NCBI GenBank assembly: GCA_034520565.1
Contig: JAXHNL010000002.1
Location: 672,001-736,000, forward strand
Direction of reading: 5' to 3'
Source: Halodesulfurarchaeum sp.
GTDB taxonomy: Archaea; Halobacteriota; Halobacteria; Halobacteriales; Halobacteriaceae
DNA: 64,000 bases
Position 1 is the first letter of the stretch, and every line of letters starts with the position of its first letter. This document shows positions 34,107 to 54,874 of this stretch, piece after piece. Both the position numbers and the translations under genes were made by a program. Below the pieces are notes generated by a model that made no database searches, was not told where the DNA came from, and saw nothing but the letters and a program-made list of their open reading frames with translations.

Positions 34107-34126
34107 GTGGGAGGCGTGGGTCGGCT

Positions 34127-34769: not shown

Positions 34770-34842
34770 GGGCCGGTGGGGTAGCTTGGTATCCTTCGGC
34801 CTTCGGGTGGCCGTAACCGCGATTCAAATTCGCGCCGGCCCA
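34770..34842 (+). tRNA. tRNA-Pro(CGG), provirus integration site
   Basis: GGGCCGGTGGGGTAGCTTGGTATCCTTCGGCCTTCGGGTGGCCGTAACCGCGATTCAAATTCGCGCCGGCCCA cloverleaf. Confidence 0.96.
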
Positions 34843-34844
34843 CT
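34830..34844 (+). repeat. attL core (TCGCGCCGGCCCACT)
   Basis: Identical 15-mer at 54860-54874 just after the integrase. Confidence 0.8.
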
Positions 34845-34906
34845 ACCTATATACCCCTTTTCCAGCCTTCACTGACAGGTTTAGCGGGTTTTCGGGGGTG
34901 GTCGGT

Positions 34907-35016
34907 TTGAGCGTTTCCGAGGACTCTGAGCCCCTGATCTGCAACTACTGTGGGGAGTACATCGAGGAGCCGATGCAGCGGTGTCCGGCTCTCGATGAGG
35001 GGTGTGTCGGCCATGA
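34907..35016 (+). CDS. Small Cys-rich (zinc-finger-like) protein next to att; possible frameshift near 3' end
   Basis: LSVSEDSEPLICNYCGEYIEEPMQRCPALD.. Confidence 0.45.
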
Positions 35017-35232
35017 GGCTGTAGACGGACCTCCGAAATTGTAAACAGCTGAAATCAGCCTCATCCAGCCCCTCGAACTCGAAAACAGGGCCTCAAATCC
35101 GCCCTGTATACACCCTCCCGGGGTCCCGATTTTCGTCTCGATTCCGCCCCCGGGTGGCCGAAGGCACGCGCAACAGGCGGCCGAGGGCCAGCGGGCGGGT
35201 ACGCGGGCGCGAAGCGGCGGGGTGATCGCGGC

Positions 35233-35580
35233 ATGAGTCTCGCCGATGAAGCGGACGAAGCGCGTTCCGTGGCGGACCTGAAGCCGGGCGACACCGCGCC
35301 GGTTGAGAACCAGGACGGAGGGCATAACCGAGCGATCGTCGCCGTGATCCGGGACGAACCGGCTGGCGAGTGTCAGGTCACGCCGCAGAGACGGGACGCC
35401 CCGATCTCGATCAAACAGCTCTGGCGGCCCGTGTCGATCGGAGCCGATGAGCCGGTCGTCGGCGTCAGGTTTGTGAAGGGCGTCGACTGGGACGGCACGC
35501 CGCTCACGTGGACCCAGCGGATCGCGGATTACCCGGCTTCCCGGGTCATGCAGGTGAATTTCGGGGGTGCCGATCGATGA
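35233..35580 (+). CDS. Provirus hypothetical protein
   Basis: 115-aa ORF preceded by GGGGTGA RBS; first gene of an overlapping operon. Confidence 0.65.
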   Translation: MSLADEADEARSVADLKPGDTAPVENQDGGHNRAIVAVIRDEPAGECQVTPQRRDAPISIKQLWRPVSIGADEPVVGVRFVKGVDWDGTPLTWTQRIADYPASRVMQVNFGGADR

Positions 35581-35942
35581 GCACGACAGTCTCCGCCCGG
35601 ATCTCCGACCCGGATCTCGCCAATCGACTCGACGAGGAGCAGGACCGAAGCCAGGCGATCCGTGATGCGCTCCGGACCTACTACGCCGACGATATCGTCG
35701 ACGTCCCGGTCTCCGGCCGTCCCCGAGACGCCTACGACGAGCTGCTCTCGATCACGAACGGCGGGGGGCTGATCCGCAAGAAGGTCGCGGAAACGGTGCT
35801 CGCCCAGACGGTCGGCCTCGAGAAGTCGATCATCAAGCCGACGATCTTCTTCCCGCTCGAAGAAGCGGGCCTGATCCAGCCCCGCCGGACGTGGCGGGAG
35901 GTGTACCTGCTCGTTCGATCTCCCGAGGAGGTTGATCGGTGA
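35577..35942 (+). CDS. RHH/winged-helix DNA-binding protein
   Basis: MSTTVSARISDPDLANRLDEEQDRSQAIRDALRTY RHH pattern; ATGA overlap. Confidence 0.7.
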   Translation: MSTTVSARISDPDLANRLDEEQDRSQAIRDALRTYYADDIVDVPVSGRPRDAYDELLSITNGGGLIRKKVAETVLAQTVGLEKSIIKPTIFFPLEEAGLIQPRRTWREVYLLVRSPEEVDR

Positions 35943-36070
35943 TGCCCTGGACGATCTACCCCTGTTGCGGGCATCACGAATCGACGCGGAAAATCGGGGC
36001 GGCCCGGCGGCCGGTCTGTCCGGCCTGTGGCTCCCAGCAGCGGCTCGTCGAAGGTGCTACGCCGGCATGA
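35942..36070 (+). CDS. 42-aa zinc-finger microprotein
   Basis: MPWTIYPCCGHHESTRKIGAARRPVCPACGSQQRLVEGATPA*; overlaps both neighbours. Confidence 0.6.
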   Translation: MPWTIYPCCGHHESTRKIGAARRPVCPACGSQQRLVEGATPA

Positions 36071-36412
36071 TCCGGTTTACCCGGCAAGAGGCCCGATACG
36101 CTCACGGCGACCGGTACGATCGGGGGAGTCGATACAACGAGCGGCACCTTCTGGACGTCGAGATCGAGACCCGCTCGACGAACCGGTTCGTCGTTCGGTT
36201 TTCGACTCCGACGAGGGCCATGTCGTCGATCTCGAAGCGACACCGGACGGCTACGTCGGCGAGTGCACCTGTCCCGATCACGACTATCGCGAGACGGTCT
36301 GCAAACACATGTGGGCGGTCTTCGCGGCTCCCGACGTCCCCGTCATCGATGAGGGCGACGACCGGATCGGGAAACGTCCGACGCGGGCACTCACGGACGG
36401 AGGGACCGCGAC
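36067..36412 (+). CDS. SWIM zinc-finger protein (frameshifted; end approximate)
   Basis: ECTCPDHDYRETVCKH CxC...CxH SWIM motif; typical haloarchaeal TDGG C-terminus. Confidence 0.7.
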
Positions 36413-36900
36413 CGCCTCGACGTCGACGCCGGCGCCACGACCGAACGGCCAGGCACCGACTCAGGGCGAGCTCGTTGAGGAGTGGATGGCCGACCGGTAC
36501 CCGATTCGGTTGGTCGACTGCGAAATACGACGACGCCCGGCTCACGACCGACACGGGCCTCGCGAGGGAGGGCGCACCGGTCCAAATCAAAGGCTCCCAA
36601 GAGCGGGTCCGAAACGGGTACGACCGAAACGGCAATCAGGAATACACCACCGGGAGGCTCACGGCTTGGCGAAACGAGCTGCTCGAACTCCTGGCCGATG
36701 GCGGGGTCTATCTGATCGGCCTCTACCATCCCGACCGCGATCCTCGAAGCGAGGATTTCGTGACTCGCACTCGATGGATCACGCCGGAGGATTTCGGCGG
36801 CGTCCTCGAGGGCCACTGGACCGAAGGCCACCGGCCGAGCAAGGGCGAAAAGGGGCGGGTTCGCTGGACGGCGGTTCTCGGGGGCGATCCCGATGTCTAA
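36409..36900 (+). CDS. Putative PD-(D/E)XK-like nuclease (frameshifted; start approximate)
   Basis: GELVEEW...YD(D)AR...PVQIKG arrangement when two frames are joined. Confidence 0.5.
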   Translation, partial: RPPRRRRRRHDRTARHRLRASSLRSGWPTGTRFGWSTAKYDDARLTTDTGLAREGAPVQIKGSQERVRNGYDRNGNQEYTTGRLTAWRNELLELLADGGVYLIGLYHPDRDPRSEDFVTRTRWITPEDFGGVLEGHWTEGHRPSKGEKGRVRWTAVLGGDPDV

Positions 36901-37153
36901 GGCGGGACGCCGCCCGTCGACAGCCGACGATCGGCCCCGAGTACCCGCGATCGCGGCCCGGATCGGCGAGGATCCGGCCAAGTACCTGCACGAGCCGGAC
37001 GAAACGACCTTCGCGCTGATTCGGGGCATCGACGACGAGACCCGTCTCGATTGCTGGTTTGCGATCGAGGAGGACCTCGGCCCTCGACCGGAGGTTCTTG
37101 CGGTGCTGAACAAGCGACGGGAGGCCCTGAAGGACGGTGATCGCGATGAGTGA
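36893..37153 (+). CDS. Provirus hypothetical protein
   Basis: 86-aa ORF overlapping the previous gene. Confidence 0.65.
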   Translation: MSKAGRRPSTADDRPRVPAIAARIGEDPAKYLHEPDETTFALIRGIDDETRLDCWFAIEEDLGPRPEVLAVLNKRREALKDGDRDE

Positions 37154-37614: not shown

Positions 37615-37701
37615 CACCTTCCGATTCTATATTGGAATCGGAAACTCAACTACCCGAACCGGAGTGGAGTATATAAACAATGGCGGGGGTGAACAGGCCT
37701 A

Positions 37702-38298
37702 ATGACGGATTCGGAAGTTGCGTGGCTCAAGCCTGAGCAGGTTGAGGCGATGCGCGACGTCGCTCACACGGGGCGGAACGGTCACCGTGACGAAGCGCTT
37801 GTCACATTGCTTTATGACACCGGTCTTCGTCGAGCAGAGGCCGCGGCCCTCGATCGGGAAATGCTCGACCTGGATGACGGAACGCTGTTCGTCCCCGGCC
37901 CGATCCAAAAGGACTACCCCAACGACAACTCACCACCACCAGTGACGATGGAGCTCGACCAGTCGGGAGATCTACGTACAGTTCGAACGCTCCGATCCTA
38001 CCTTTCGTGGAGAAACGACGCTCGGTCACCACTATGGACGGGAAGAGCATCACCGCGTTTGTCGGGTAAGAGCATCAACAACGTGGTAAACGTCTCGCCA
38101 AGCGGGCCGACGTCCAGCCTCACCTCCAAGTAGGCCGCGGTGATCCGGAGGACATACTCAGCGCATACGCTCCGCCACTCAATTGCTTACCGCATGCTTC
38201 GCGTCGAAGAAAAGGACATCTACGCGGTGAAGAACCGGCTTAGGCACGCTTCAATCTCGACAACGGACCGAAAGTACGCTCATTTGGATATGGTATAA
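37702..38298 (+). CDS. Short tyrosine recombinase, catalytic domain only (one frameshift near 38090)
   Basis: RDEALVTLLYDTGLRRAE, then HTLRHS...RLRHASISTTDRKY in the second frame: R-K-HxxR-H-Y all present. Confidence 0.85.
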
Positions 38299-38320
38299 TG
38301 TCGTAAAAGAATACTTCATC

Positions 38321-38924
38321 TTAGAATGTTGGAATATCCATATTACGATCTTGATTTCCTAAGTGAAACTCAGTAGATTCCGTCATGTCTCTAATATTGT
38401 CTAATATTGAAAACCGCTGTATATCTTCATACGAATTCCCGGCAGCATCCTTATAACTAAATTCGACCACTAGCCTATCGCTACTGTTGTATTCCTCTAT
38501 CTTGTTTTCAATTTTCTTCTCAGTTCCCGAAACGCCAAAATCTGACCCGGAAGGAATTGGAAAATCAAGATTGTATACTTCTTCAGGAAGTACAACCTTT
38601 TTCCCCAGGTCTGATTATCGTCTTCGCTTTCTTCAAGATAAATCAACTAGCAGAGACATCTTGCGCTAATCCACCACCTATATTCACAAACGATAGACAA
38701 AAATTTGGCCCGTGGAAGTTTCTAACAGCTGCCTTTAATTTCGGTTCATAATTCAATTTTCTAGTTTTAGTCATCTCATCGGTTTGTGCGGAGATCTCGG
38801 CTGTTTGGTTTTTCGTCTGTAAATAATATTTCCAAGTTGCTATCGCCAAAACAACAGTAAAGAAGGCAAGAACGACACTTGAAGCAATTTGAATACCGGT
38901 TGCGATCTCGTTAGCAATCACCAT
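38321..38924 (-). CDS. AT-rich cargo gene with N-terminal TM helix (interrupted reading frame)
   Basis: Low GC; hydrophobic SSVVLAFFTVVLAIATWKYY; frame resumes to TAA at 38321. Confidence 0.55.
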
Positions 38925-39109
38925 ACCCAGATCACATTCCCCAATCAGGTATTATTTTTGCTGTTGCAGCATTTAATTAATTGAGAGAAATTGGTCTAAA
39001 AGTAAGTCGTAGCGAAGATACTAAACACGTTACAATCCATCAAGGACCTTGCTCTAAATCATTAATCGGACGATTATCTTACACTCAAAACCTTTTGTAA
39101 GCCGCTAAT

Positions 39110-39533
39110 CATTCACTGGAAAGTTCAACCATATATTATATAGGGGCTGCTATTCGCAAAGAAAATCCAGCCACTACAAAAGCAAAACCGAATATCGAGT
39201 CGGCAACATTCATTACATCAAAATATGATTGGCGACGTGAGGGACTTGCAAATCTCTCCAGTCCTTCGCTCAACAAAATCAAGTGAATGAACTCGCATCC
39301 TCAACGCGACGAAAGCCAATAAAGAAGCACCCAATGCCATGAATCCGAGTCCCGTAGTACCGGTGATCTGGTGATACGTATACAATCCCAAAAAGCAAAA
39401 CCATATTCCTAATGCTGCTACTGATTAGAGACTTACACATCAATTGGACTCGGCCAATATTCCGATAAAATGATATTCCTTGGTACAAATGTCCCAATAC
39501 CGTATCTGCAAGAATCAGTCTAATTCGGTTCAT
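39110..39533 (-). CDS. AT-rich cargo membrane protein (frameshifted; end approximate)
   Basis: Low GC; hydrophobic segments across frames. Confidence 0.4.
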
Positions 39534-39621
39534 GATTTATTTCAAGATTCGAGATTAAATAAAAGCGTACATTGAAAGGATCGGGGAAATCTTTTCCATA
39601 TTCCAAATCTCTCGAATATTA

Positions 39622-40022
39622 ATGTTTGAAGACACTCCCAATAGCGAGGAACCAGACACTGGGTAGAGGACCGAATTCATGAAATATATAACTATGAGGA
39701 CTTGAAGGATTGCGATATTGATTATCTGCACAATCGCGAATTTGGTTTAAAGGCTAATATGAAAATATTTGAAACGGGTTTTCCTGATGAAGACGTTGAG
39801 GATCATCTTATAGCAATCACAGATGTGGAGGATGATTTTCTGAGTCTAGAAGCGCTTACCCCTGCCGAAAAAATGAGGCTACAATTTCTCAAAATGGAGG
39901 CTGAAAAAGAGATTCACAGGGCAAAAGGTCACCGGATGAATTTGCGAAGGGAACACAGGAACAAAATGGCCAATGCGTTTGCTGACCTGGTGAAGTCAAT
40001 TGGGGATCTAATTCCTTGGTGA
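39622..40022 (+). CDS. AT-rich cargo hypothetical protein (5' part interrupted)
   Basis: 106-aa ORF 39702-40022 with an upstream ATG at 39622 in another frame. Confidence 0.5.
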
Positions 40023-40219
40023 TTTCGAGCCACCCTCACATTAAATAAAGAACTTTGCTTTCGTACAGTCTGTACGAAAACGGTCGTTTTCGGACGCCCT
40101 CAAATCACTCTCTGAGCGGTTCGAGGGGCCGCATGTCCAATCGGTTACGTTGGTCGGCTGGGCTATTCACTCGGCCCACGACGACTTACGAGAACGGCGA
40201 ATGAGAGATCGCCCTGAAC

Positions 40220-40705
40220 TCAGCAGCGCTCGCAGCTCGACCAGGAAGGGGAAGATTGCCCCGCCCCAGACCCACCCGTCGAGCGGGGTCCACACTCCCA
40301 GGCATGGCTCACGAGATCGTCGAGCGAGACGAGCAGGCCAATCAGCAGCAAACCCCGAAATCCGGGGACTGGAACCGGGAGGAACCCGATTCGCCGGATG
40401 CGAACCCAGGGGTAACGGGCCGCGAAGTCCCCTGCAAACAGAGCCAGAGCGATCGCTGCCAGCCCGACGTGAGAGAACACCGCTCCCACCACGGGGTGAT
40501 GCTCCCAGAGCAGGAAGCCCATCACGGCCACGAGAATCCCGCCCATCACGATCGAGGGCTCACGGTGCCGGTGGTCGTCCTGGACGTGCCAGACACCGTA
40601 CAGCGCGATTCCCAGGCCGATCCAGAAGTGATGGGCCGCGAGGATCGTTGCGTCCGGAGTGCGCTCAGCCGGCCAGGAAAGCGCGGCCAGGGCCAGCTTC
40701 CTCAC
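40220..40705 (-). CDS. Multi-TM provirus membrane protein
   Basis: HHFWIGLGIALYG..., 4 hydrophobic segments; GTG overlap with upstream gene. Confidence 0.6.
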   Translation of the reverse strand: MRKLALAALSWPAERTPDATILAAHHFWIGLGIALYGVWHVQDDHRHREPSIVMGGILVAVMGFLLWEHHPVVGAVFSHVGLAAIALALFAGDFAARYPWVRIRRIGFLPVPVPGFRGLLLIGLLVSLDDLVSHAWECGPRSTGGSGAGQSSPSWSSCERC

Positions 40706-40974
40706 GGACCGGTGTTGCCCCGGAGTTTGTTCACAATCGCGACCGTATCCTCGCCGATCGCGTAGGTCAGGGCCGCGAGGAAGGCCGCCAGGTAGACCAT
40801 TCCGACCGCCCCGCTCGGCCAGGTCGCCGGGACGGGCTCGAGTGTGAGGGCAGCCATGACCGCCAGCATGAACAGGATGATCGCCCCGGCGGAGAGCGTC
40901 GAAAGCCACTCCCACCGGGTCTTTGCTGTCTCCGTGAGCTGTTCGTCGTCGTTGGTGTTGGAGTTCTCACTCAT
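40702..40974 (-). CDS. Small two-TM membrane protein (holin-like topology)
   Basis: 90 aa, two TM helices, basic C-terminus. Confidence 0.6.
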   Translation of the reverse strand: MSENSNTNDDEQLTETAKTRWEWLSTLSAGAIILFMLAVMAALTLEPVPATWPSGAVGMVYLAAFLAALTYAIGEDTVAIVNKLRGNTGP

Positions 40975-41230: not shown

Positions 41231-41622
41231 GCGGCTCTGGCGGCGAGCTCGGCGTAGTCACTCAGCAGAACCAGCACGAGCAGAAGGACGAGAACCCACG
41301 CCCACCACGGGACGGCCCCCGGCTACCGACCCACCGCCGCCGGAGTCCTCGCCAGCGCCGAACGTGTCGCCGAACCAGTCGAGCGGGCCGGTCGACAGTA
41401 GTCCTCCGGGTCCGTTGACTGGCCGCCGTCGTTCTCTGACGACCCACCGGGGAGGTTCTGGCCGCCGTCCACCGTCGGAGCTCCGACACCGCCCGCGTCA
41501 TCGCCCCAGGTGAACGTATCGGCCCACCAGTCCCACGTCGTGTGGCTCGGCTCTTGAGACCCGCCGCCGGGTATCGGGTTGTCGGGTGTGACCGGAAACC
41601 CGATCGAGGTCTGCCGGGTCAC
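41227..41622 (-). CDS. Provirus structural protein with C-terminal TM anchor (frameshifted)
   Basis: MTRQTSIGFP...; C-terminal VVGVGSRPSARAGSAE/hydrophobic stretch across frames. Confidence 0.45.
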
Positions 41623-42451
41623 CGGTCAGGCCGCCCTCGAGAACCATCACAGCCACCCTGATTAACCGCCAGCGCCCCGCCGCCGATTACCCCGGCGGCG
41701 ATGAGCCAGACCGTCGGACGAGACAAGTTTCCGGCCCCATCGCCCGGGTTTTCGAGGAAGGTAACGATCTCCTCCCGGGCCTGTTCCACGTCCTCCGTCG
41801 AGGTCGGCAGTTCCTCGGGAACGTTGGGCTCACCATCACCGTCGGTGTCGAACAGGTCGGAGTCGTCGTTTCCGGTAAACCACTCGTCGCCGATGATCGC
41901 CTGATCGCCGTCCTCCGTCTCGACGGTTTCCGAGTCGTCCATGTTGTCGAGCCGAGGGTCGTCGTCCGGCAGGGTCGGCACGCTCTCGGGGTCGCTCCGG
42001 CTCCCTGTCGTCGTCCTCGTCGGTCGGGTCGCTGCGAGTTCGGCGTACTCTGGCGCTCCCAGTCGTCGCCGTCGTCCGAGCCGGTGCTACTCGAGGAGCC
42101 GCCGGAGTCGTCCGGGTCGGTCGTCGTGAGCCCGCCGTCGTCGGAGCTGGTCGAGTCCGTCGAATCGGCGGCGTCCTCGATCGAGTCCTGTATGTTTCCG
42201 AGACCGAAACCCGAGTCCGTGGTGTCGTCGTTCACGTCGTCGGGGTCGTCGTACACGTCGTTGGGCTCCGTCTCCTCCGTCGTCTCGTTATCCGACTCCC
42301 ACGAATCGCTCCCCGGCTCCTGCTCGTCCGGGACGTAATCGCGGGGGTCGTCGTCGTACAGGTCGGCGGTGTCGTCGCTCGTGTCCGTCGTCGTGAGCCC
42401 GAAGTCGTCCGTGTCTGTGCTTCCGCCGCCTCCTGTGGGTGCTATGTACAT
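41619..42451 (-). CDS. Acidic D/T/S-rich protein with C-terminal TM anchor (frameshifted)
   Basis: Low-complexity acidic N-terminus joined to ...TVWLIAAGVIGGGALAV. Confidence 0.6.
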
Positions 42452-42586
42452 CTATTTGCCTCCGTAGTGGTAGATAAGGGCCGCCAGCCCGGCCAGCGCG
42501 ATCGCGGCCAGCATGTTGTCGTTGAGGGTGATGCTCGGGCCCGGTTCGGGGCTTGAATCGGGGATAGATTCAGCGGGGACGGTCAT
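42452..42586 (-). CDS. 44-aa single-TM microprotein
   Basis: MTVPAESIPDSSPEPGPSITLNDNMLAAIALAGLAALIYHYGGK*. Confidence 0.55.
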   Translation of the reverse strand: MTVPAESIPDSSPEPGPSITLNDNMLAAIALAGLAALIYHYGGK

Positions 42587-43489
42587 GGTGTAACGATCAC
42601 TCCACTCGTTCCGTTACCTCCATCTCCGCCGTTTCCGCCGTTATCCGAAGTCCCTCCAACACCCCCGGAACCGCCCGAAACCGAGAGGTTCCCGTTATTC
42701 GTATACATCGAGGCAGAAATTTGAATATATCCGCCGTCGCCGCCGCCACCGCCGCCGCCTGCCCCTGCGGCTGACGAGTTTCCGCCATTCGCTCCGTCTC
42801 CGCCCTCTGCGAGAACGCTCCCATTTATTTCAACAGACGGAGCCGACAGGATAATCAGGCCGCCACCGTGGCCTCCGTTCCCACCGTTAGCCCCGCCGTC
42901 ATATTCGTCCCCTCCCCCTCCACCGCCTGCCGCCGCCACTTCCGGCGTAACGGCCGAGGTTTGCGATAGTCAGAGGGAGGATATTGTCGTCTGTCGAGAT
43001 CTTGCAAAACGTCCAATAGCCACGGGTCCGGCGACACAGACTGCCCATCTGCACCATTACCGCCGCTTCCGCTTGCGTCCGAGTCGCCGCCGCCACCCCC
43101 ACCGGCCGATGTGCCTCCATTGCTACCGTTTCCACCGTCTGTACCTCCGCCTCCGCCACCATTTCCACCGCCACCGATGTACCAGCCAGCCGCACCCTGA
43201 TCTCCGGAGTATCCGTTATCGCAACCAGAACTTGAACAACCACTTCCGCCAGAACCACCGCCAGCGACAGCGGTTGCTTGAGTGTCCCATCGATTTTCGA
43301 TTTTCTCGGAGGCCATGATGATCGTCACATCCGGAGATGAAACGGTAACGCCATCCTCTACCGTGTCGGTCTTGCACCCAACTACCCGTTTTTCCGTGGT
43401 TGAGGATGACCGAAACGGTGTCGGCCTCAGACGGCATCCCGTATTTGACCACATGCGCCGCCACCGCCGCCGCCGATAAGTCCCGCCAT
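42583..43489 (-). CDS. Glycine-rich putative spike/receptor-binding protein (frameshifted)
   Basis: Many GGxGG repeats with beta-strand linkers (GGLIILSAPSVEINGSVLAEGG). Confidence 0.65.
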
Positions 43490-43927
43490 TTAGGCCACCT
43501 ACGTGAGAAACGTGTAATCGTGTCCACGCTGTCCTCCAACTGGACCCGGATTTGTGAGCGGTCGGCCACCTGAGCCGTGTAAGACGACCCGGGGCTCAGT
43601 CGGACGGTTGGAGAGTCCGACAGACCGACCTTTACAGGGGCGTTGTTGTCCGGGTCAGCCTGAACGACGACCGCCACACCGTCCGGCACGGCACCCGCTG
43701 AAAGCGCCTGTACGTTCGTATCGCCGGGGGAAACGGAGTTGTCGTACCCGTTCGAGTAATTGCCTTGGTTGGTCTCGATCGTGCCGGCAGTCGTATCTAT
43801 CGAGTCGAGAATGGACCGGACGAGTTCGAGCCGTTCGTCGCTGGCGGGGTGGGCGAGGTCTTCTCGGAGTCCTCGACCTCATCGACGTCCCGATACTCCC
43901 CACCTCGCCGCGTTGCTCAAGCGGCAT
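43490..43927 (-). CDS. Putative beta-rich structural protein (frameshifted)
   Basis: VPDGVAVVVQADPDNNAPVKVG...LSPGSSYTAQV..RSQIRVQ beta-strand pattern. Confidence 0.55.
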
Positions 43928-43928
43928 T

Positions 43929-44297: not shown

Positions 44298-44394
44298 GGG
44301 TCGGCCCTCCCGTCGGCGTCGAACCGGCGGCCCTTGGCCTGTTCCTCCTCGGTCTCGTCCATGTCCTCGATCTCGATCTTTGCTTTCTCGGCCA

Positions 44395-44646: not shown

Positions 44647-44649
44647 GCG

Positions 44650-45374: not shown

Positions 45375-45377
45375 GAT

Positions 45378-45881
45378 TCACACCACCCGGACGGCGTTGC
45401 GGTTGATGAGAAAGCCGACTGCGACCATCGATCTGGTCCACCGACAGGATGGAAACGTGCAGGTCGTCGATGTCCCGGACGGTGAGCTGGGGCATCTTCC
45501 CTCTGCGAGTGCCTGATCGGTGTTCTTGAGCTGCACCTTTGTCCGGTCGATGTACTCCTCGTCCTGCTGCTCGTTCAGGCTGAGAGCGTTGAACGGCCGG
45601 ATATGGTCCAGTTTGAAGGTGACGACCTGCGGCTGATCCATCCCGGGAGCTTCGTACTGGAAGGCCAGCACGGTGTCATCCGGGAGGGTCTGGCCGTCGG
45701 CCCGCCGGAGATCGGCGGCGATCGGGAAGCCACGGGCCGACCCCGAAGAGACCATTCCGAGATGACGAGCGCGAGCCCGTCCATCGGGGAGAACGTCAGG
45801 ATCGGCGACAGGACGCCCGTGGTGTTCGTTCTCGGTCGCTTCGACTTCGGTGCTCGTCTTGTTGCTGAGCTGCTTCGTCAT
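45378..45881 (-). CDS. Small major capsid protein (P23-77 VP16/SH1 VP7-like; frameshifted)
   Basis: PIAADLRRADGQTLPDDTVLAFQYEAPGMDQP...FNALSLNEQQDEEY resembles the L.D..G..LP..T motif of single-jelly-roll small MCPs as recalled. Confidence 0.75.
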   Translation of the reverse strand: MTKQLSNKTSTEVEATENEHHGRPVADPDVLPDGRARARHLGMVSSGSARGFPIAADLRRADGQTLPDDTVLAFQYEAPGMDQPQVVTFKLDHIRPFNALSLNEQQDEEYIDRTKVQLKNTDQALAEGRCPSSPSGTSTTCTFPSCRWTRSMVAVGFLINRNAVRVV

Positions 45882-45884
45882 CAG

Positions 45885-46171
45885 TTACCCGCCCCAGGTC
45901 CGTGATCGTGCTTGACACCGACGCGCTCGGCGAGCTTGTCAGCGGTGTAGAGCCCGCCGCGCATCTGGATTTCCCGCGTGTAGGCCGGCGAGTCAGGTGG
46001 CCCCGATCATGACGAGAAGGCCGTGATCTCTTCGGGGAGGTCGAAAGGCGAGTTCGGTTCGATGATGTTCTTTGCGACGGTCCCGGCCAGGAAGGCCGCG
46101 AAGACCGCGACGATCTGCATCCACTCCTCGGTGTCGAGGAGGGCTTCGAATTGCGACTGTAGTTCTGGCAT
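45885..46171 (-). CDS. Small virion membrane protein (frameshifted)
   Basis: MPELQSQFEALLDTEEWMQIVAVFAAFLAGTVAKN...; immediately upstream of the MCPs. Confidence 0.55.
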
Positions 46172-46327
46172 GCTACACTCGACACCTTCGAGAGTGGCTG
46201 TAAAGGGCGAGCAGGCGAGGAAGGGAGCTATTCGGCGCGAATGGTGAAGTTTACTCCCGAGGTCTAATAATTGATTTTGGGCCGTTTCCAGCCCTAGCTT
46301 TTTCCTTGTAGGATTTGATCGGTGACT

Positions 46328-46806
46328 ATGACGTCCGCTTCAGACATTGAGCAAACCCTTCTCAGTTCAAATCCATCAGATTGGATATGAATGAGGTCGA
46401 GTGGGGCTTAGCAAATGAAATCGACGAGATGGGTCCCACCCGAGTTGTAGCAGTTTATGAACAAGATGTTCAACTTCGTGTTGAACAAGGAAAGGTGGCT
46501 GTCCAGAACTTCCAAGAAGAATGGAGTGATCGGTACCCAGATAATGAGAATAACACGAGCTTTAGCTTCTGGGTCATTTATGATAGATCTCCAATTGATC
46601 ATCAAGTCATTGCTATCAGTCGATGGCGGTAGAGCATGGATTCCAGTCCCTGACCGCCCTGAATCTCTGACGAACCGTGGACGATTTCCCCGTACAAAAA
46701 CGCAATCGGAGGTGCGGTAAATAGGGACTATTCCTCTTATCAAGATCACCTTAGGAGGGCCGGTATTGAGGTGAGGTAACGAAGAATTTCCTTCAATTCA
46801 TCATAA
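46328..46806 (+). CDS. AT-rich inserted gene on the opposite strand (frameshifted; ends approximate)
   Basis: Low-GC ORF fragments 46381-46632 and 46457-46720. Confidence 0.45.
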
Positions 46807-46808
46807 CC

Positions 46809-46943
46809 TCAGTCGTGTTCTCGGAGGAGCTCATCGATTACCTTCGGATTTGAAGGTTCGTACCCAAGCTCTTTCGCCAAATCTGCCTTTATCTCTTGAA
46901 ATCGGCTCGCCTGATCGCCGTATAACTTGATATGTTCGACCAT
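46809..46943 (-). CDS. 44-aa RHH-like protein
   Basis: MVEHIKLYGDQASRFQEIKADLAKELGYEPSNPKVIDELLREHD; coupled to the ATPase stop. Confidence 0.55.
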   Translation of the reverse strand: MVEHIKLYGDQASRFQEIKADLAKELGYEPSNPKVIDELLREHD

Positions 46944-47717
46944 TAGAATGGCTGCGCAAGTTCGTGATCTGATCCACCGAAATGGGGGCTCTGCATGTCG
47001 ATATTGGCCGAATTCTTCCGTACCATCGTCCCCGAATCGTCCGAATAGATCCACTCGGACATGACGACCTGGCCGTTTTCCTCCCGCTTCCGGAGCGGTA
47101 CCGGCCCATCCTCGGAGTGATGCACCGACTCGGGAAGGTCGTAGATCGGGCCGTCGGCCAGGGGTTGTGCACCTCTTCATTGTACTCGGTCCCAAGCCGA
47201 TTTCGATCGCTTCGGTCCTTGAACCCACCGTAGAGGGAGGCGTTCGTCTGCGAGATGACCGTGTTGTGCAGCTCCTGGAAGCCGCTGGGTGATCCAGATC
47301 GAGGAGACGCCACCCCGGCCGGTCGTCGCGAGCAGCTTGATCGCCTCGAGGAGCTTGGACTGTTGATCGGCCACGGAGTGCGCCTCGTCGACGACCACGA
47401 GCCCCTGGCCGTCAAGCAGCCGCATTGCCGCTGCGACGTCCTGCGGCGACCTGCCGCCAGGCGCTGGTCGAGCAGCTCGGGCAGGTGCGGACTGTCCCGT
47501 TCTGTCGAAAGACCTCAGCCCAGGCCTCGGGTGAGGAGCTGTGCCTCCCGGTCGCCTACGGCCACATCGGACGCCAGCCCGCTCTTTACCAGCCCCGAAA
47601 CTCGTCGTTGTAGTCGAGGATCGCGGCGTACTCGACGTCATCGAGGTTGTCTTCGACGGTGGCCTGCCCGACGTCGGATTTGCCCCATCCGCTTTGGGCG
47701 GCGATGAGCTGGCGCAT
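46943..47717 (-). CDS. Genome-packaging ATPase, FtsK/HerA superfamily (frameshifted)
   Basis: Walker A AQSGWGKS, ILDYNDEF, Walker B LVVVDEAH, Arg finger TTGR, IWITQR. Confidence 0.85.
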
Positions 47718-47718
47718 G

Positions 47719-48287
47719 CTACTCGGCGAGTTCTTCGAGGGCGTCCTCGGCCGCCTGAAAGTTCGCCTCGAACACCTTGCACTGGATGGCCGTGGCACCG
47801 ACCCAAGCGACGACCTCGGCGACGAAGGTCCGAAGGTCGACGTCGAACTGCTGCCGGAACGCTGGACGGCGATCTCCGCGTCGGTCATCCCCTCGACCTG
47901 CTCGGGGACCCTGTTCGCGGTACATCTGCCGGCAGTCCCTGATCCGCTGCTCGATCTTCGCCGTCCATTTGCAGGTACTCGACCAGCCGGTCGGGCCCGT
48001 CGACGTGCCCGCCGATTACCGTTGCGGCCCACCGCTCGGCCAGCTGCATTTCTGCGGCGGCTTCGATGAACCCGAGGAGCATGTCCTGGCGGGCGTCGAC
48101 TGGCACCGGGTCGAGATCGACGTCCTGGTCGTGAGCGTCGGCGACCTGATTCACCCGCTCGATCAGCGCGGCCTCGTGCTCGGCGAAAATCCGGGATGGC
48201 CCGTGTCGCGCCCATCTCCGCGATATCGATGGACTGGATGGCCTGCTTGATTGCCTGCTCTTTTGCCGTATTGAAGGGGTTACGCAT
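47719..48287 (-). CDS. Provirus hypothetical protein (frameshifted)
   Basis: Coding fragments in three frames, MRNPFNTAKE...EELAE. Confidence 0.5.
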
Positions 48288-49167
48288 CGGATCGCACCCC
48301 CGGCAACGTCGGCGGCCACTCGATCGAGGAAGTCGGTCTCGTCACCGATACAGTCCCGGCGATGATAAGGGGAGCCAAATAGGACCTGCTGGCCGGGGTC
48401 CATCTCGCCCATGTCTCGCTCGGCAGCCCACTCGTCGACTGCCTCGTCGAGCCCAAGATCGTGAGCCATCGCCTGGGGATTGGTCCCCTCCATATCCCCG
48501 CCTTGGCGCTTGACGACCGTTGAGAGGAGGTATCCAGCGTCCGGACGTACATCTCACCCCACCCCACGCCGCCCGCTCGGCTGGTCGACTGTGACAGCTC
48601 CTCGGTGGTCTGCTCTTCTTCTCCGTCGGATTCTTCGTCCTCTTCTTCGGCACCGGCCCCGGCCGCCTCCTCGATCTCGTCGGCGACGGCTGAAAGGTCG
48701 GCCATCTCGTCGCCCTCGATCTCGGGAACGTCTTCGTCGACGGTCTCGGGCTCCGGCTGCTCGACGTCGACGTCTTCCTCGGCGGTGCTCATGCCCCAGG
48801 CCGGCTCCATCCTCGGGGAGTTGGCCTCTTGGTCGATGTCTTCGTCGGTCACCATCTCGGTATGGTCGGGATCCTGAGAGGATCGCTCTCCCCGTCGCCC
48901 ATGTAGCGATCGAGAAGGACCAAGATCACGACCAGACCGGCCAAGAGCGAGGGTCGTCTTGTCGACCGAGGGAACGAGCGCCCCGACCGCCCCGGAAAGG
49001 GCCCCTTCAGGGCCCTCGGTGAGCCCCTTCGAAGCGCCTTTCGAAGGGCTGCCGTCCCTGGCTTTGCCTCCCTCGTCGTCGGTCTCCTCGTCGGAGGGGC
49101 CGCTACCGCCCTGACTACCGCCCTGATACTGTGCTCGTTGGCGCTCGATCTCGTCCTCGGTTGGCAT
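48280..49167 (-). CDS. Acidic membrane-anchored provirus protein(s); probably two frameshifted genes
   Basis: E/D-rich segments; hydrophobic stretches near 48930 and 48350. Confidence 0.45.
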   Translation of the reverse strand: MPTEDEIERQRAQYQGGSQGGSGPSDEETDDEGGKARDGSPSKGASKGLTEGPEGALSGAVGALVPSVDKTTLALGRSGRDLGPSRSLHGRRGERSSQDPDHTEMVTDEDIDQEANSPRMEPAWGMSTAEEDVDVEQPEPETVDEDVPEIEGDEMADLSAVADEIEEAAGAGAEEEDEESDGEEEQTTEELSQSTSRAGGVGWGEMYVRTLDTSSQRSSSAKAGIWRGPIPRRWLTILGSTRQSTSGLPSETWARWTPASRSYLAPLIIAGTVSVTRPTSSIEWPPTLPGVRSDA

Positions 49168-49177
49168 GTCGTCGTTT

Positions 49178-49537
49178 TCAGGGGCCCCTTGCAGGTCCCT
49201 CGTCGGGGCCCTCGTCTTCCCCTTCGAGGTCCCTGCCGTCCCCGGCTTCGGCCCCTTCGTTTTCGGTCTCCTGGTCGGTCGATTCTTCCGAGGGGGCGCT
49301 ACCGCCCTTCTCGGGGGCCCTTGCAGGGCCCTCTTCGGGGCCCTCGGGGGCGCTCTTCGAGGACGCGCCGTCCCCGGCTTTGGGGCCTCGTCCCCTCGGT
49401 CTGTTGCCTCTTCATCGAGACGGGCCCGGATAGCGGCCCAAGGGGTGGTCGTTGCTGGCGTTGACGTGCCCCTGAAGATTGCTTATCGCGGGGAAGTCGC
49501 GGCCGCATTCGGGGCACTTGATGGGTGTCTCAGTCAT
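49178..49537 (-). CDS. C2H2 zinc-finger protein with acidic EGP-repeat tail (frameshifted; end approximate)
   Basis: KCPECGRDFPAISNLQGHVNASNDH. Confidence 0.65.
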
Positions 49538-49559
49538 TCGATAACTGCGTGCATTGGAT

Positions 49560-49748
49560 TCAATTGAGAAGCCGTCCGAGATAGGCAGCGGCAAGCACCC
49601 GGATTATTTCGCCGTCTGGGGGTTCATCGCCCCAGAGTCGAACGTCCTCCTCGATGCGATCGAGGTCATCGTGGATCTGCTCTTTCGCCGCTTCGAAGGT
49701 TTCCGCCTGATCTTGGTTTGAGAATGCGATCTGCTTCGTTGGACTCAT
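49560..49748 (-). CDS. 62-aa hypothetical (possibly RHH-like) protein
   Basis: Intact small ORF, MSPTKQIAFSNQDQAETF. Confidence 0.55.
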   Translation of the reverse strand: MSPTKQIAFSNQDQAETFEAAKEQIHDDLDRIEEDVRLWGDEPPDGEIIRVLAAAYLGRLLN

Positions 49749-50509
49749 CCGGGAGGTCCTCTTTCGTGATTGATTCGCCCCGAGTTCGTCGAACGTGAGG
49801 GTACCTGGCCGTACTGATCGCTGATATCGTTAATCGCCGCAGCGGCTCGTTTGGCCTCGCCCAGGCCGGCTTTGAACTGCGTCCATTGGCTGCTCAGGCC
49901 CTGGTACGGCCCGGAAGCCCACCCGTAGAGGGGTCGGCCTCTTCGTCGTCGAGAATGTTCTCGACCTGTTCCTCGGAAAACCCGCAGGACTCGCTCAGGA
50001 ACTCGCAGGCGTCGGGATCGCCGTGACGGCAGTAGCCTTCGGCGTGGTTGCACTCCTCGGCTTCCGCCGTTCGTGCAGCTCGACCGGCTCGTTCGACCCC
50101 GCTCTCTTCGCTATCGAGTTGCTTTCCGCCGATCGGGTAGCTCGTTCGTCGAAGATCGAGCGGTGTTCGTCGACTTCGAGAGTGGGGTCGAAGTACGACA
50201 GCCAGTCGTAACCCCCTTATCCAGAGCAATCCCCTTCACCGCCTGAGCTTTCGGCACGTTGACGCCGTCTTTCGAAAAGTCCAGCCGGTCGCGCTCCCCG
50301 TCGTCGAGGGGCACCTGACCGGACTTTTCCCCCTCTTCGGCGACCTCATCGAAGGCCGCACGTTCGGCCTCTTCGATCACCCGATTGGGGCCATCGCCCC
50401 GGAATTGGACAGTCTTGAGCCGGGCGTCGTCGTCCGGACAGATCGCGTCGGGATGCTCCTCGCGGAAGTGGTCGGCGGTGGCCTTGTGCTCGAATTCGAC
50501 AGCAGTCAC
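49745..50509 (-). CDS. Provirus hypothetical protein (frameshifted)
   Basis: MTAVEFEHKA... joined to ECNHAEGYCRHGDPDACEFLSESCG fragment. Confidence 0.55.
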
Positions 50510-50528
50510 AGCCCTTCCCCCGCTCCAA

Positions 50529-51018: not shown

Positions 51019-52466
51019 ATGAGTCAGGTAGTAAAGCAAAGTGCAAACTTTCGATGGGAGCTGGGCTTAGAACCCAAATTCCATCTACTCCTAGCAGGAT
51101 GGAAGCAGGAAAAGCATGACCCCAGAAATCCGGACGTTTGAAGAGCGTAAAGAATCGCCAAATCAGGGGAAGAAGCATCTCTAATTGTTCGGGCAAGTAG
51201 CTCACAAACTGATCTTGAGGGTGCTTTAGAGGCAATAGGGGCTGCGGTTAGGCCCATTTCAGATGATCAGTACAAGGTGGTCATGCCGGAAAGCGATCTC
51301 CACCGTTTAGAAGGGATCTCTGGGATTGAGCAGATCGAAATTGAAATCGAAGGGGAGCCTTTAAGAGGGAAACCTGAGCTCCCAGTTCGCTATGATTCAG
51401 TAAGGGATCTGCGAACTGGGTTATTGAGGCATACAGACAGATCTCCAATATTAGCCTCTTATGAGGTCCCTGAGGGAAATGTGGATATTGCCATAGTGGA
51501 TTCTGTGTATGAACTCGAATCTTTGGAAGGTTGGGACCCAGGATTTGACACAATCGCCGAAGAAGATTATACGGAAAGTGACGATGAGGTTTCTACTTCA
51601 ATTCACGGTTGGCATATTTCAAATTTGATCAGTTTCTTTATAGATCCAGAAAGAGTCACTTTTCATACGTACCGTGTGGTCAATGAGGATGAAGAAGAAT
51701 CAATGAATCAAGTCTAATCGAGGCTATAAAGTCGGCCCGAGATGATGGGGTCGATTTGATTAATCTATCAGTAAGTTTTGATCATATTGGTTCAAGGGTT
51801 AAACAATGCACACCTACTTCAACAATTGTGGTATATGCTCACGAGATAAGAAAAGCAATAGAAGATGGGATTACAGTCGTAGCTGGTGCAGGGAATGATT
51901 CAACATCTGAGAAGACATCCTGTCCAGGCGCGGTAGATGAAGTCATCGCTACAGCAGGTTACATCCCAAAGTGTCCCAATGGGCCCACTGGACCAGGATC
52001 AATCTGGATGTATTATGACGATGACGAAATAGAGGCAGACCCATTGGGAATGACACCAATTTGTAGTATGCAAGGGTGTGGCTATACCGAAATGTGTTCT
52101 GAAAATAGGGAGGATATTTATTGGGAGAATAATTCCGAACATGAAGGGAATAAGCCCGATGTGGCTGCCCCAGCAGCAATAATCATGGGGGGTGAACACG
52201 TTTCAGTTAATCCCGGGTTTATTGGTGGGACGAGTTATGCTGCTCCTATTGTAACTGCACAAATAGCAAATTGGTTACCTGTGTTCAAGTTTGAAGATAT
52301 CACATTAATACCCCAAGAAATCAGAAACGGTATTCGAGCGGCAAATAAAGATTTGGATACTGGGGAAAACCTAAAATTCGACGGAATTAGTGCATTCGAA
52401 GAGATAGGAGCGACATATAACATTCAACACGAAGAGTCCTCGGTTGATCTTCATCAGCCCCGTTGA
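51019..52466 (+). CDS. Subtilisin-like (S8) serine protease, AT-rich cargo (frameshifted)
   Basis: DIAIVDS (Asp), HGWHISNLI (His), AGAGND oxyanion motif, KPDVAAP, GGTSYAAP (Ser). Confidence 0.8.
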
Positions 52467-52479
52467 GAATTCCGGATTC

Positions 52480-52764
52480 CTAGCCGAACCCCTCAATACC
52501 CGATCCACAGTCGGCAGGCCGGTACCTCGCGTCGATCTCCTCCTGGAGGTAGAGCTGCCGTTCATCGTGAGCTCGTACATCTCGTTATGAATCGGCGCGA
52601 TCATGCCGGCGTACTGGAGTCTTCCACCGCTCCCCGATCCGTCCCGTCGAAGCGGTGAACTCTATCGCTTCGGCCATCATCGTCGGCGTTCCCCAGCCTT
52701 CACTGTCGAGGTGCTCGAGGATGCGTTCGTCGACTTGCTCCATCCAGTGAGCCGACCGTCTCAT
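52480..52764 (-). CDS. phiH1-repressor-like winged-helix protein 2 (frameshifted; end approximate)
   Basis: MRRSAHWMEQVDERILEHLDSEGWGTP...YELTMNG. Confidence 0.7.
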
Positions 52765-53072
52765 ACGTGATTTTCGTCCTCGGAGGCAGTTGGTCCGGGG
52801 ATTCGTCGACCTCTGGGATCTCGTGGGGCGTCTTCGGCGGTGTTGATCTCGCCGTCGAGATATCCTCTCCCGTTCGGTAATGGTGTAGACTCCGTTTCCA
52901 GAGATCGTTTGGAAGACCGTGTTTAGCGGTTTTCAGAGCCCGTTGGGAGGTGTCCCCGAGTGTACTGGATACCCGCGTCCACCATTTCTTTAGGCCGGCC
53001 TGAGCCATTTTCGCGGATATATTCGAGAATCCGGTCGTCTGCCAAAACCATCCAATCTCCCGATCTTCTCAT
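52761..53072 (-). CDS. phiH1-repressor-like winged-helix protein 1 (frameshifted)
   Basis: MRRSGDWMVLADDRILEYIRENGSGRP...GNGVYTITERG. Confidence 0.75.
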
Positions 53073-53147
53073 TAGTAAATAATTAACTACTCGGGGGATA
53101 TTGTTGTTTGGGTGGGTGAACCCTCTATCCTTAGATCGGTAAACCAT

Positions 53148-53173
53148 CCGCCGATAGTTATATTAATCGGCGG
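53148..53173. promoter_or_regulatory. Inverted repeat enclosing a TATA-like box (putative operator of the immunity switch)
   Basis: CCGCCGAT-AGTTATATTA-ATCGGCGG, ending 19 nt before the RHH ATG. Confidence 0.55.
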
Positions 53174-53192
53174 TTAATTGTTTGCTAACGCA

Positions 53193-53393
53193 ATGGCTCG
53201 AAGAAGCCTATCGGTGTCCATCTCCATGCCGGTCGAGATGGACGGAAAACTGGCAGAAGAGGCCCGAAGACACGGGATGAGCTACTCGGAATATGTCAGG
53301 CACATCCTGAGAGAGCACGCGATCACTCCGTTCAATTCGCCGAGCATTTCGCTCGAAGAATTGGAGTCAGAACGTCAGGAGGGGGCTGCCTGA
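53193..53393 (+). CDS. CopG/RHH transcription factor
   Basis: SVSISMPVEMDGKLAEEARRHGMSYSEYVRHILRE. Confidence 0.85.
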   Translation: MARRSLSVSISMPVEMDGKLAEEARRHGMSYSEYVRHILREHAITPFNSPSISLEELESERQEGAA

Positions 53394-53758
53394 ACCATGT
53401 GCACTGGTGGAGCCCCCAGTCCAAGAACGGCGAGCACGGCCGTAAAACCTCCGGCGAGGAGATAATCGTCGCCGGTGACGAGGGCGAGATTTTGGAGGCC
53501 TGAAATGAGGGGCGCACCCCTCACGTACGACGAGCCCGACGCCCGAGCGCGACGGGCACGGTCCCGCTTTGCCGGGTCGTCGGGTCGACCATGTACGTCC
53601 CGAAAAACGCCTGCCCCTACTGCGGCGAGGAAGGCGGTCGGGATGCGTAACTGCACCCATCCGGTGATCCAGTACGACGAACGCGAGGAGCCCTACTGCG
53701 GCGCTTGTGGGGCGATGCTGGGGCATCGCTCCGCGTCCGATATCGGGATCGCCGAGAC

Positions 53759-54808
53759 ATGACCGATGGAGAGACGTCGCGACGATCCGACCGACCTCTC
53801 CCTCGAAAGCGGTATCCCGGTATCTCCACGTCGAGCCCCGGACTCGACCGAGAAGAGCATTCACGGGTGGGAGTACCGCCTGAAACCTTCGTCGAGTGGT
53901 GCGAGCCGTCGGGATCGAGCGGTCGGCGAGCTGCGCCGGTACGATCTCGACGAATACTACGAGCTCCGGAGCGCGGAGATCGCGCCGGCCACCCTCGAGG
54001 GCGAGATGTGGACGCTCAAGATGTTCGTCGACTTCCTGGGTGATATCGGGGCCGTGGAGTCCGACCTGGACGAAGCGGTTCGTATCCCCGATATCGACCC
54101 CGAGGATCGATCGAACGATACGAAGCTCGAAACCGACGCCGCACTTGCCCTGATCCAGTATTATCGGGATTCCCCGAAAACTACGCGACTCGGGCCCACG
54201 CATTCCTCGAACTCCGGCGTCGACGGGGCCCGGCAGGGCGGCCTCCGGGCGCTCGATATTCGCGACGCCGAGCTGGATGACAACCCGTACGTTTACTTCC
54301 GGCACCGGCCGGAGCAGGGCGCCCGCTCAAGAACAAACGGAGCGGCGAGCGGCCCGTGGGACTCACGTCCGAGACGGCCGACGTGATACGGGCCTCGTCG
54401 ATGGGCGCCGGTACGGTCCACGACGACCAGGGGAGGCAGCCCCTACTCGCGAGTGCCAAAGGACGCCCGACGTCGAACACGTTTCGAAATTGGACTACAT
54501 GGCAACTCAGCCGTGTCTTCACTCGGCCTGTCCGCACGGGAGGAACCGGGAGACGTGCAAATTCGTCGCCACAACCACGCTTCGATACCGAGTTCCCGAA
54601 GTCCGCACCAAATTCGAACCGGGACGATCACCTGGCTGTTGAACCTCGGCTGGCCGCCGCAAGACGTCGCCGAGCGTGTCAATGCCAGCGTGAAAACGAT
54701 CGGAAGCATCACGACAAGGCCGATCCCGACGAGCGCCGCCGTCGGCTTCTCGATCGAATGGAGGATCGACGTCGACCACTCGTTAACAGTCTCAAAATAG
54801 CACAATGA
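53759..54808 (+). CDS. SNJ2-family tyrosine integrase (several frameshifts)
   Basis: Joined frames: GARQGGLRALD, LKNK..GERPV, TQPC..CPH..C insert, SRSPHQIRTGTITWLL, AERVNAS; ends next to attR. Confidence 0.88.
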
Positions 54809-54859
54809 CATTACCAAAATCGCAACATCTGCACGCACCGCCACGAAACCGATTCCACG

Positions 54860-54874
54860 TCGCGCCGGCCCACT
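54860..54874 (+). repeat. attR core (TCGCGCCGGCCCACT)
   Basis: Identical to 34830-34844; 51 nt after the integrase stop; followed by a T-run. Confidence 0.75.

Follow-up and report, generated by a model that had tools for sequence, protein, structure and literature searches.

What is the 20-kb element that follows a tRNA-Pro gene in the archaeon Halodesulfurarchaeum sp., and why are so many of its reading frames broken? The window analysed here is a stretch of 64,000 nucleotides (assembly GCA_034520565.1, contig JAXHNL010000002.1, positions 672,001 to 736,000 of the forward strand), in which an earlier reading of the bare letters (hereafter the sequence-only reading) had proposed an apparently complete provirus of a tailless icosahedral virus, hidden by frameshifts. 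We show that bases 34845-54849 of the window, 20,005 bp at the 3' end of tRNA-Pro(CGG), are a provirus with a full virion module of the type found in the haloarchaeal virus SNJ1. The frameshifts in its genes are probably, for the most part, errors of the assembled consensus and not decay.

The limits of the element are set by a direct repeat of the tRNA 3' end. The 15-mer TCGCGCCGGCCCACT is present exactly at 34830-34844 and at 54860-54874, whose outer limits are the ends that the sequence-only reading had given for the provirus, and it recurs with 1 mismatch at 55000-55014. No further match with fewer than 3 mismatches was found in the rest of the window, and the 9 matches with 3 mismatches (7.5 expected) do not exceed chance. 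Two elements in tandem were also considered and rejected, as there is no internal copy of the attachment (att) core with <3 mismatches. The features of the site are as follows.

34770..34843, plus strand: tRNA-Pro(CGG), the integration target, whose 3' end is attL (ARAGORN)
34830..34844: attL core, exact 15-nt direct repeat (extended 25-nt copy at 34820-34844; repeat search)
54860..54874: attR core (extended copy at 54850-54874, 22/25 identical to attL; repeat search)
54990..55014: att-like relic outside the element, a degenerate copy of the tRNA-Pro 3' end, also present in genome G001

The empty site was found in this complete genome of the same genus (G001). Its tRNA region aligns to window 33108-34842, and its next 207 nt (143305-143511) align to window 54850-55056 with 87% identity. 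Because its tRNA-Pro gene runs uninterrupted into the homologue of the right flank, 34845-54849 is an insertion. The same genome carries a second copy of the tRNA 3' end some 110 nt downstream (G001:C1:143439-143468), so the third repeat of the window is an older relic common to the genus and lies outside the element; it points to an earlier integration at the same site, which may be a recurrent landing place. The site has the marks of proviruses that target tRNA genes by means of a tyrosine integrase: an integrase gene lies beside att, the tRNA 3' end is directly repeated, and the tRNA itself is restored and intact. From the biology of SNJ1 and of such integrases, the circular genome would recombine via the att core, thereby restoring the tRNA, and the element would excise on induction. 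To the right of the element, window 55056-58665 is non-syntenic with G001, G010 and G008, in which the relatives of its PAS gene (55180-55608) and of its 856-aa open reading frame (ORF; 56068-58638) sit elsewhere. The stretch forms another variable island next to the tRNA, and its genes are open.

Two relatives served as guides to the broken genes. When 41 related genomes were searched at the DNA level, weak, colinear matches appeared in one of them (G021), of which a 20-kb stretch (C2:170001-190000, hereafter L009) has an intact operon. With its 240-aa protein as query, a tblastn search of a phage collection matched 7 records, all of them SNJ1, NVIV1 or HJIV1; the proteins matched are the annotated large capsid proteins of these viruses (NVIV1, 38.6%, E 2e-44; HJIV1, 38.1%, E 2e-45; SNJ1 PB2, 33.9%, E 7e-33). 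The second guide, a contig of Halorientalis persicus IBRC-M 10043 (L022), was found via an intact 122-aa ORF of the window (72% identity in the best segment, 73% once realigned) and has an intact structural operon adjoining tRNA-Pro(GGG).

With the proteins of SNJ1, NVIV1, HJIV1 and L009 as tblastn queries, the virion genes were located on the minus strand of the window in the viral order: VP2-like protein (50500-49799), packaging ATPase (47717-46946), VP6-like membrane protein (46171-45911), small capsid protein (45832-45427) and large capsid protein (45273-44867). Alignment guided by L022 extended both capsid genes, the ATPase and the neighbouring genes to full length, and the structural module of the relatives is all present. 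The sequence-only reading had thus named the integrase and the leftward operon (ATPase, small membrane protein, both capsids) correctly, was right about the range of the capsid genes (44650-45881), and its wording "apparently complete" holds. In gene order along the minus strand, the module reads as follows.

48904..50521, minus strand: VP2-like structural protein (SNJ1 gp18, NVIV1 ORF26, phrog_22825), at least 3 frameshifts (tblastn, PHROGs)
47732..48783, minus strand: two structural-module genes, frameshifted, homologues of L022 6414-7058 and 5875-6417
46949..47717, minus strand: packaging ATPase with Walker A (AAQSGWGKS) and Walker B (VVVDEAH) motifs, broken by 5 frameshifts but without a stop (tblastn; phrog_2666)
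46200..46900: low-GC spacer of about 0.6 kb, absent at this place in L022, L009 and SNJ1
45884..46171, minus strand: VP6-like small membrane protein (tblastn: L009 14125-14412, 42%; SNJ1 gp25, 31%)
45381..45881, minus strand: small major capsid protein (VP7/VP16/PB7 type), full length, 4 frameshifts in two compensating pairs, no stop
44659..45356, minus strand: large major capsid protein (VP4/VP17/PB2 type), full length, 5 frameshifts, no stop
44398..44646, minus strand: intact 83-aa membrane protein, homologue of L022 9632-9883
43932..44297, minus strand: intact 122-aa beta-rich protein, 73% identical to L022 9974-10339 and 40% to L009 16080-16439
43507..43939, minus strand: homologue of L022 10327-10740 (137 aa), 2 frameshifts
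42586..43500, minus strand: Gly-rich protein in several frames, candidate spike (ORFs)
41323..42485, minus strand: acidic and transmembrane proteins, frameshifted, weakly similar to L022 11507-12908
40702..40974, minus strand: last conserved gene of the module, small membrane protein (phrog_26168; compare L009 19565-19960)

The large capsid protein is 62% identical to its L022 homologue and 33-37% to those of SNJ1, NVIV1 and HJIV1; the small one is 64% identical to that of L022. The ATPase shares 40% identity with SNJ1 gp23 (32-40% over the three viruses), and its L009 homologue matches phrog_2666 at E 1.8e-28. The 122-aa protein found only unnamed clusters in the ESM Atlas, the Gly-rich ORF at the equivalent place in L009 matches tail-fibre PHROGs, and blastn of 43900-49200 against the phage collection gave no match. 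By analogy with SNJ1, the virion would be tailless and icosahedral, with a shell of the two capsid proteins around an internal membrane and with DNA packaged by the ATPase.

Since the window's own capsid genes are broken, the capsid proteins of L022, 61-64% identical to them, were modelled with AlphaFold2 from alignments of 18 and 24 relatives. The model of the large protein (predicted local distance difference test, pLDDT, 90.7) matches the capsid proteins of HHIV-2 (6h82_A), SH1 (6qt9_A) and HCIV-1 (6h9c_A) and VP17 of P23-77 (3zn6_A, 3zmn), with E-values of 1e-10 to 9e-10 and template modelling (TM) scores of 0.61-0.70; the 7 chains found at E <=0.001 all belong to HHIV-2, SH1, HCIV-1 or P23-77. 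The model of the small protein (pLDDT 84.9) matches P23-77 VP16 (3zmo, 3zn5), HCIV-1 6h9c_K, SH1 6qt9_h and HHIV-2, with E-values of 9e-9 to 2e-6. This link to solved structures came from fold comparison only: in a sequence search against them, the L009 large capsid protein found none and the small one a single chance match (E 0.94). Judging from these models, the element encodes the small and the large single-jelly-roll capsid proteins by which Halopanivirales are recognised, next to a packaging ATPase of the FtsK/HerA type. The proposal of a temperate, simulovirus-like virus with these three proteins is therefore supported by homology to SNJ1, NVIV1 and HJIV1 and by the models of the relatives' proteins.

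The ATPase deserves a separate comment, as its relatives give weak Pfam matches only, to Zot (E 3.6e-4) and TraG-D_C (E 1.2e-3), and its best match among solved structures is HerA, again a weak one (E 0.027). These are the grounds on which an integrative plasmid or conjugative element with an ATPase of the VirB4/HerA type might be proposed. By contrast, both capsid proteins are present, in the gene order of SNJ1, NVIV1 and HJIV1 and with Halopanivirales capsid folds in the relatives' models, and no conjugation genes were found in the window by Pfam or PHROGs. We consider a non-viral element refuted and its probability negligible. The sequence-only reading had itself named the absence of jelly rolls, together with a conjugative ATPase, as the outcome that would overturn it; the match of the L022 models to jelly-roll capsid structures makes this refutation fail.

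That the frames are broken in the sequence is clear: what is one ORF in L009 or L022 falls into two or three frames when it is aligned to the window. With relatives as guides, our own frameshift-aware aligner counted 30 one-base frameshifts (20 missing and 10 extra bases) and 0 in-frame stops over the 1493 codons of 8 alignable genes. The events are spread as 4 in the small capsid gene, 5 in the large capsid gene, 5 in the ATPase, 2 in the 137-aa gene, 2 in the N-terminal part of the VP2-like gene and 12 in the integrase, with 0 in the 83-aa and 0 in the 122-aa gene. The predicted sites include 45839, 45759, 45505, 45414, 45217, 45125, 44925, 44771, 44728, 47590, 47535, 47438, 47278, 47165, 50208 and 50128. 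In the flanks, 19 ORFs of the same genus align to 16 distinct host genes of the window, 18 of the 19 without a change of frame; the remaining one extends from stop to stop, overlaps the antisense of another gene with its first 101 residues, and was taken to be no gene. Across the genome, long ORFs of coding-like composition take up 85% of both contigs, and the only GC-rich DNA short of such ORFs is the provirus and C2:780001-787500. Other low-GC islands of the genome carry long open ORFs.

A second broken stretch was found at a contig end, C1:1-9200 (L030), where DNA of 26-34% GC, in a genome of 65% GC, has short ORFs only. It holds fragments of an ABC transporter, of BrkB and of a sulphite-reductase-like gene, and is followed, from 9257 on, by a normal 598-aa PAS/histidine-kinase ORF. 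The stretch has the look of chimeric or unpolished sequence, and it counts in favour of consensus error as the source of the provirus frameshifts.

The "hidden by frameshifts" of the sequence-only reading stands for the sequence, but the frameshifts are probably not biological. At a rate of about 1 base per 150 nt, in nearly every gene, they would be mostly consensus errors in a poorly covered stretch. A likely cause would be that only part of the population carries the provirus, in which case the virus would probably be intact in nature. The competing view is that of the same provirus, truly defective, which gathered real one-base indels after integration and makes no particles. We regard it as rather unlikely, and the spectrum of the damage is the first reason: 30 frameshifts stand against 0 in-frame stops, and no larger deletions were seen, every gene being full length. 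In simulations with 30 indels and 5x as many substitutions, a mean of 4.5-5.4 stops arose and the probability of 0 stops was 0.006-0.019; at 10x, 0 of 1000 runs were stop-free, while at equal numbers that probability was 0.33-0.38.

Nor is there an excess of change at conserved residues. When L009 served as outgroup, 73 amino-acid changes were unique to the window and 81 to L022; the corresponding counts were 64 and 66 for SNJ1 as outgroup, and 69 and 50 (p 0.10) for NVIV1. No acceleration of the large capsid protein was seen against 13 relatives with three outgroups. Of the 25 columns of this protein that are invariant in all others, the window alone departs at 6, and intact relatives reach up to 5. 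Slippage mutations are expected to prefer homopolymer runs, but the frameshift sites are not enriched there, 33% lying near runs of >=3 against a background of 32%. No 4-mer stands out at the sites either, such as a methylation site prone to miscalling would be (GATC is near 3 of the 18 sites in the tested region and 3 of the 19 listed in all).

The capsid genes of other genomes also speak against real decay. A profile search with the large capsid protein matched 28 of 301 genomes of the order, a count that includes the genome of the window. Among the other 27 matches, 23 are whole and stop-free, 3 have a single TAG and 1 is split over two contigs; the window genome's match alone lies in three pieces and frames. 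The in-frame TAG occurs in otherwise full-length matches of G176, G153 and G094, all of one genus, and may be a shared nonsense mutation or a case of read-through.

Metagenomic evidence came from two runs of one salt-pan sample, in which only 0.08 and 0.06 of the sampled words were present; on habitat, the runs tell nothing beyond the contigs compared. Contigs with >=99% identity to the window made up 26 of 68 and 6 of 11 in the two runs (about 32 in total), and the comparison of all contigs gave nine indel rows. In four of them the contig has an extra base (after 38597, 46388, 46665 and 50208) and substitutions are absent nearby. The extra T after 50208 is precisely the missing base predicted by all four guides, and it restores the frame; at this site, real decay is contradicted. 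A fifth row, with one base fewer at 47280, coincides with an extra base predicted at 47278-47281, and its contig is a related variant, since it has 8 substitutions. Three kinds of signal were unusable as evidence: bins without coverage, the ends of contigs (one contig stops close to the att core, 19 nt beyond 34850) and three joints whose sides measure 21-32 nt. Contigs about 87-90% identical to the window were also seen at 35472-35729, 36570-36639, 44010-44064 and 47245-47312. Judged by these sequences, a related variant of the same virus evidently lives in the salt-pan sample.

Several points weigh against consensus error and keep decay in consideration. The otherwise matching contigs show just 4 one-base discrepancies over the 20 kb, in about 6 kb of matching sequence, below what the density of frameshifts would lead one to expect, the coverage at the sites not being visible; the two runs may moreover be the assembly's own source, and so would not be independent of it. 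Low coverage of the provirus is a guess. The substitution-to-indel ratio of 5-10 used in the simulations comes from mutation-accumulation work in other prokaryotes. Relative-rate tests have little power at 37-57% divergence, and some of the 12 integrase events, counted against a guide of 45% identity, may be aligner artefacts. The damage ends at the att sites and the 16 adjoining host genes are whole; these sharp limits decide nothing, because decay would also respect them. Decay is further favoured by the att copies, which differ at 3 of 25 positions and could mean age, by the mosaic look that a second, truncated-looking integrase and low-GC inserts lend to the element, and by the fact that HJIV1 itself has two genes annotated as frameshifted.

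A spectrum of indels only, confined to the element, would also be produced by a process that makes real indels on the provirus alone, such as repeated error-prone repair after self-targeting, or inactivation of integrated viruses by the host. If true, it would be a fast way of disarming a provirus without deletion, or a mutational process peculiar to this DNA, and its expected trace would be at least 30 one-base indels with no nonsense mutations and no drift of conserved residues. We know of no such process in archaea, though no search of the literature was aimed at one. The frame-restoring contig at 50208 and the broken stretch at the contig end point instead to sequence quality, and we hold such a process to be very improbable. 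Consensus error thus remains the explanation that we prefer.

Outside the structural module, the provirus carries an integrase, a small early region, regulators and probable cargo, as follows.

53759..54745, plus strand: predicted tyrosine integrase, full length, adjoining attR (tblastn; about 12 frameshifts against the L009 integrase, 45% identity)
34898..35002, plus strand: small CxxC (zinc-ribbon-like) ORF (tblastx to L009 6248-6352; blastn to L022 1207-1285, 77%)
35233..35942, plus strand: two small early ORFs of 115 aa and 144 aa, without Pfam or PHROG match (ORF list)
35932..37100, plus strand: SWIM zinc-finger protein whose C-terminal part matches phrog_2095, in two overlapping frames (frameshifted)
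37702..38298, plus strand: second, short tyrosine recombinase, catalytic domain only, one base missing near 38086
38300..40100: low-GC island (40-43% GC) with short ORFs, cargo or foreign DNA
51277..52466, plus strand: cargo gene for a subtilisin-like (S8) protease, within a low-GC island and with a single frameshift near 51700
52588..53162, minus strand: two winged-helix regulators (phrog_2440), upstream of the structural operon (tblastn match 53081-52794; PHROGs)
53178..53393, plus strand: ribbon-helix-helix (CopG-type) regulator (Pfam RHH_1, E 1.3e-5)

The tblastn match of the integrase spans 53982-54701 on the plus strand. The small CxxC ORF is kept beside the tRNA in L022 and after the integrase in L009. 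The SWIM protein was recognised by Pfam SWIM (E 4.5e-4), phrog_2095 (E 3.7e-12) and tblastn to NVIV1 ORF18 and HJIV1 ORF8, with a match at 36201-36350 (plus strand). The short recombinase was recognised by Pfam Phage_integrase (E 2.8e-8), phrog_1 and phrog_216, and its C-terminal HxLRH...Y was seen by eye in another frame. The protease matches Pfam Peptidase_S8 (E 1.6e-13) over profile positions 97-267, its N-terminal part being placed by eye in ORF 51277-51717. In a Pfam scan of 111 ORFs from the window, the only matches were SWIM, an integrase fragment, S8, RHH and a host PAS domain. Neither the protease nor the cargo at 38300-40100 was found in L009, L022, SNJ1, NVIV1 or HJIV1, and the arms of the element and its three low-GC stretches have no other copy anywhere in the genome. 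The island at 38300-40100 (about 2 kb) includes small membrane-protein ORFs.

In terms of known viruses, the element resembles Yingchengvirus (SNJ1, NVIV1, HJIV1) in its order of virion genes, its homologous proteins, the SWIM protein of its early region, its temperate lifestyle and its haloarchaeal host. Members of Simuloviridae share 17-21 ORFs, among them those for two single-jelly-roll capsid proteins; their genome is circular dsDNA of 16-19 kb, kept as an episome in the provirus state, and they have an ORF4 regulator and rolling-circle replication driven by RepA (absent in NVIV1; PMC12642351). The element of the window, by contrast, is integrated in a tRNA gene with a tyrosine integrase, whereas the family is episomal (PMC12642351), and the insertion reaches 20.0 kb, including about 4-5 kb of low-GC cargo. 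By tblastn, only about 6 homologous genes were detectable in it (VP2, ATPase, VP6, both capsids and SWIM), against the 17-21 that members share in colinear order, the frameshifts lowering sensitivity. RepA of SNJ1 and HJIV1 had no tblastn match in the window at E 1e-3; since the member NVIV1 also lacks RepA, this alone is no bar to membership. A regulator of the ORF4 type (MazE/AbrB) was sought by tblastn with SNJ1 gp4 and gp5, NVIV1 ORF14 and ORF15 and HJIV1 ORF2 and ORF3, and no match was found, although short, fast-evolving proteins could escape such a search; ribbon-helix-helix and winged-helix regulators are present instead. In a tree of 22 large capsid proteins, with all rows kept and a midpoint root only, the window falls with L022 and metagenomic proteins in a starred clade (99/95), and SNJ1, NVIV1, HJIV1, L009 and P0016 form a separate one. 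Judged by its genes, the element would work like a simulovirus but is not a Yingchengvirus, because it is integrated, neither RepA nor an ORF4-type regulator was found, and its capsid proteins are only 33-37% identical.

The element also differs from the integrated proviruses of the SH1 group. Integrated sphaerolipovirus-like proviruses of this group lie between an integrase and a tRNA gene (PMC5332951; provirus list in PMC4958249). HalaCibP1, HalaPauP1 and HaloLacP1, which are alphasphaerolipovirus-like, group with SH1, HHIV-2 and HCIV-1, whereas the L009 large capsid protein, a relative of the window's, has no tblastn match to SH1-group viruses in the phage collection. As a 20-kb element with direct att repeats and an integrase, it lies outside Sphaerolipoviridae of the SH1 type as that family is described (PMC12643093).

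The closest relatives found are the provirus of L022, with capsid proteins 61-64% and a 122-aa protein 73% identical, and the capsid proteins of Halanaeroarchaeum sp. HSR-CO. The L022 provirus, like that of the window, lies at a tRNA-Pro gene, with the same small ORF beside it and the same structural operon; in L022, by contrast, all genes are open and the structural module is reversed relative to the tRNA-proximal end. For L022 1103-14700, a scan of 35 ORFs showed no integrase, and an att repeat was sought at seed 12 and not found; L022 may be a provirus that lost its integrase end. In L009, genes for PCNA, an HNH nuclease, an integrase and two DNA methylases lie upstream of the shared structural module, a replication and modification set unlike that of SNJ1; its operon also holds a SWIM gene and unnamed small genes.

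No near-identical intact copy was found among viral contigs, the genome contigs yielding only L022 (72%) and the metagenome contigs one match (68%). The best protein in a large collection, P0008, is 73% identical to the large capsid protein. In the profile search, the large capsid gene was present in 25 of 210 high-quality genomes and in 16 of 91 genera, and in 0 of 9 other genomes of the window's genus. Relatives in Halanaeroarchaeum sp. HSR-CO already bear the names "VP4/VP17-like" and "VP7/VP16-like Major capsid protein". The element is therefore less new than the sequence-only reading assumed: its capsid family is widespread in the order, the HSR-CO relative is named, and integrated sphaerolipovirus-like proviruses are already described (PMC5332951). 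In the accessible literature on integrated SNJ1-type proviruses, no description of this lineage was found.

What looks like a heavily decayed provirus may thus be a badly polished assembly, which gene callers, provirus finders and completeness scores misjudge. For the small SNJ1-type group, whose family is defined as episomal, the element adds a host genus and an integrating lineage that targets tRNA-Pro. As 28 of 301 genomes of the order have this capsid gene, the named family is only the visible part of a larger group, most of which is integrated.

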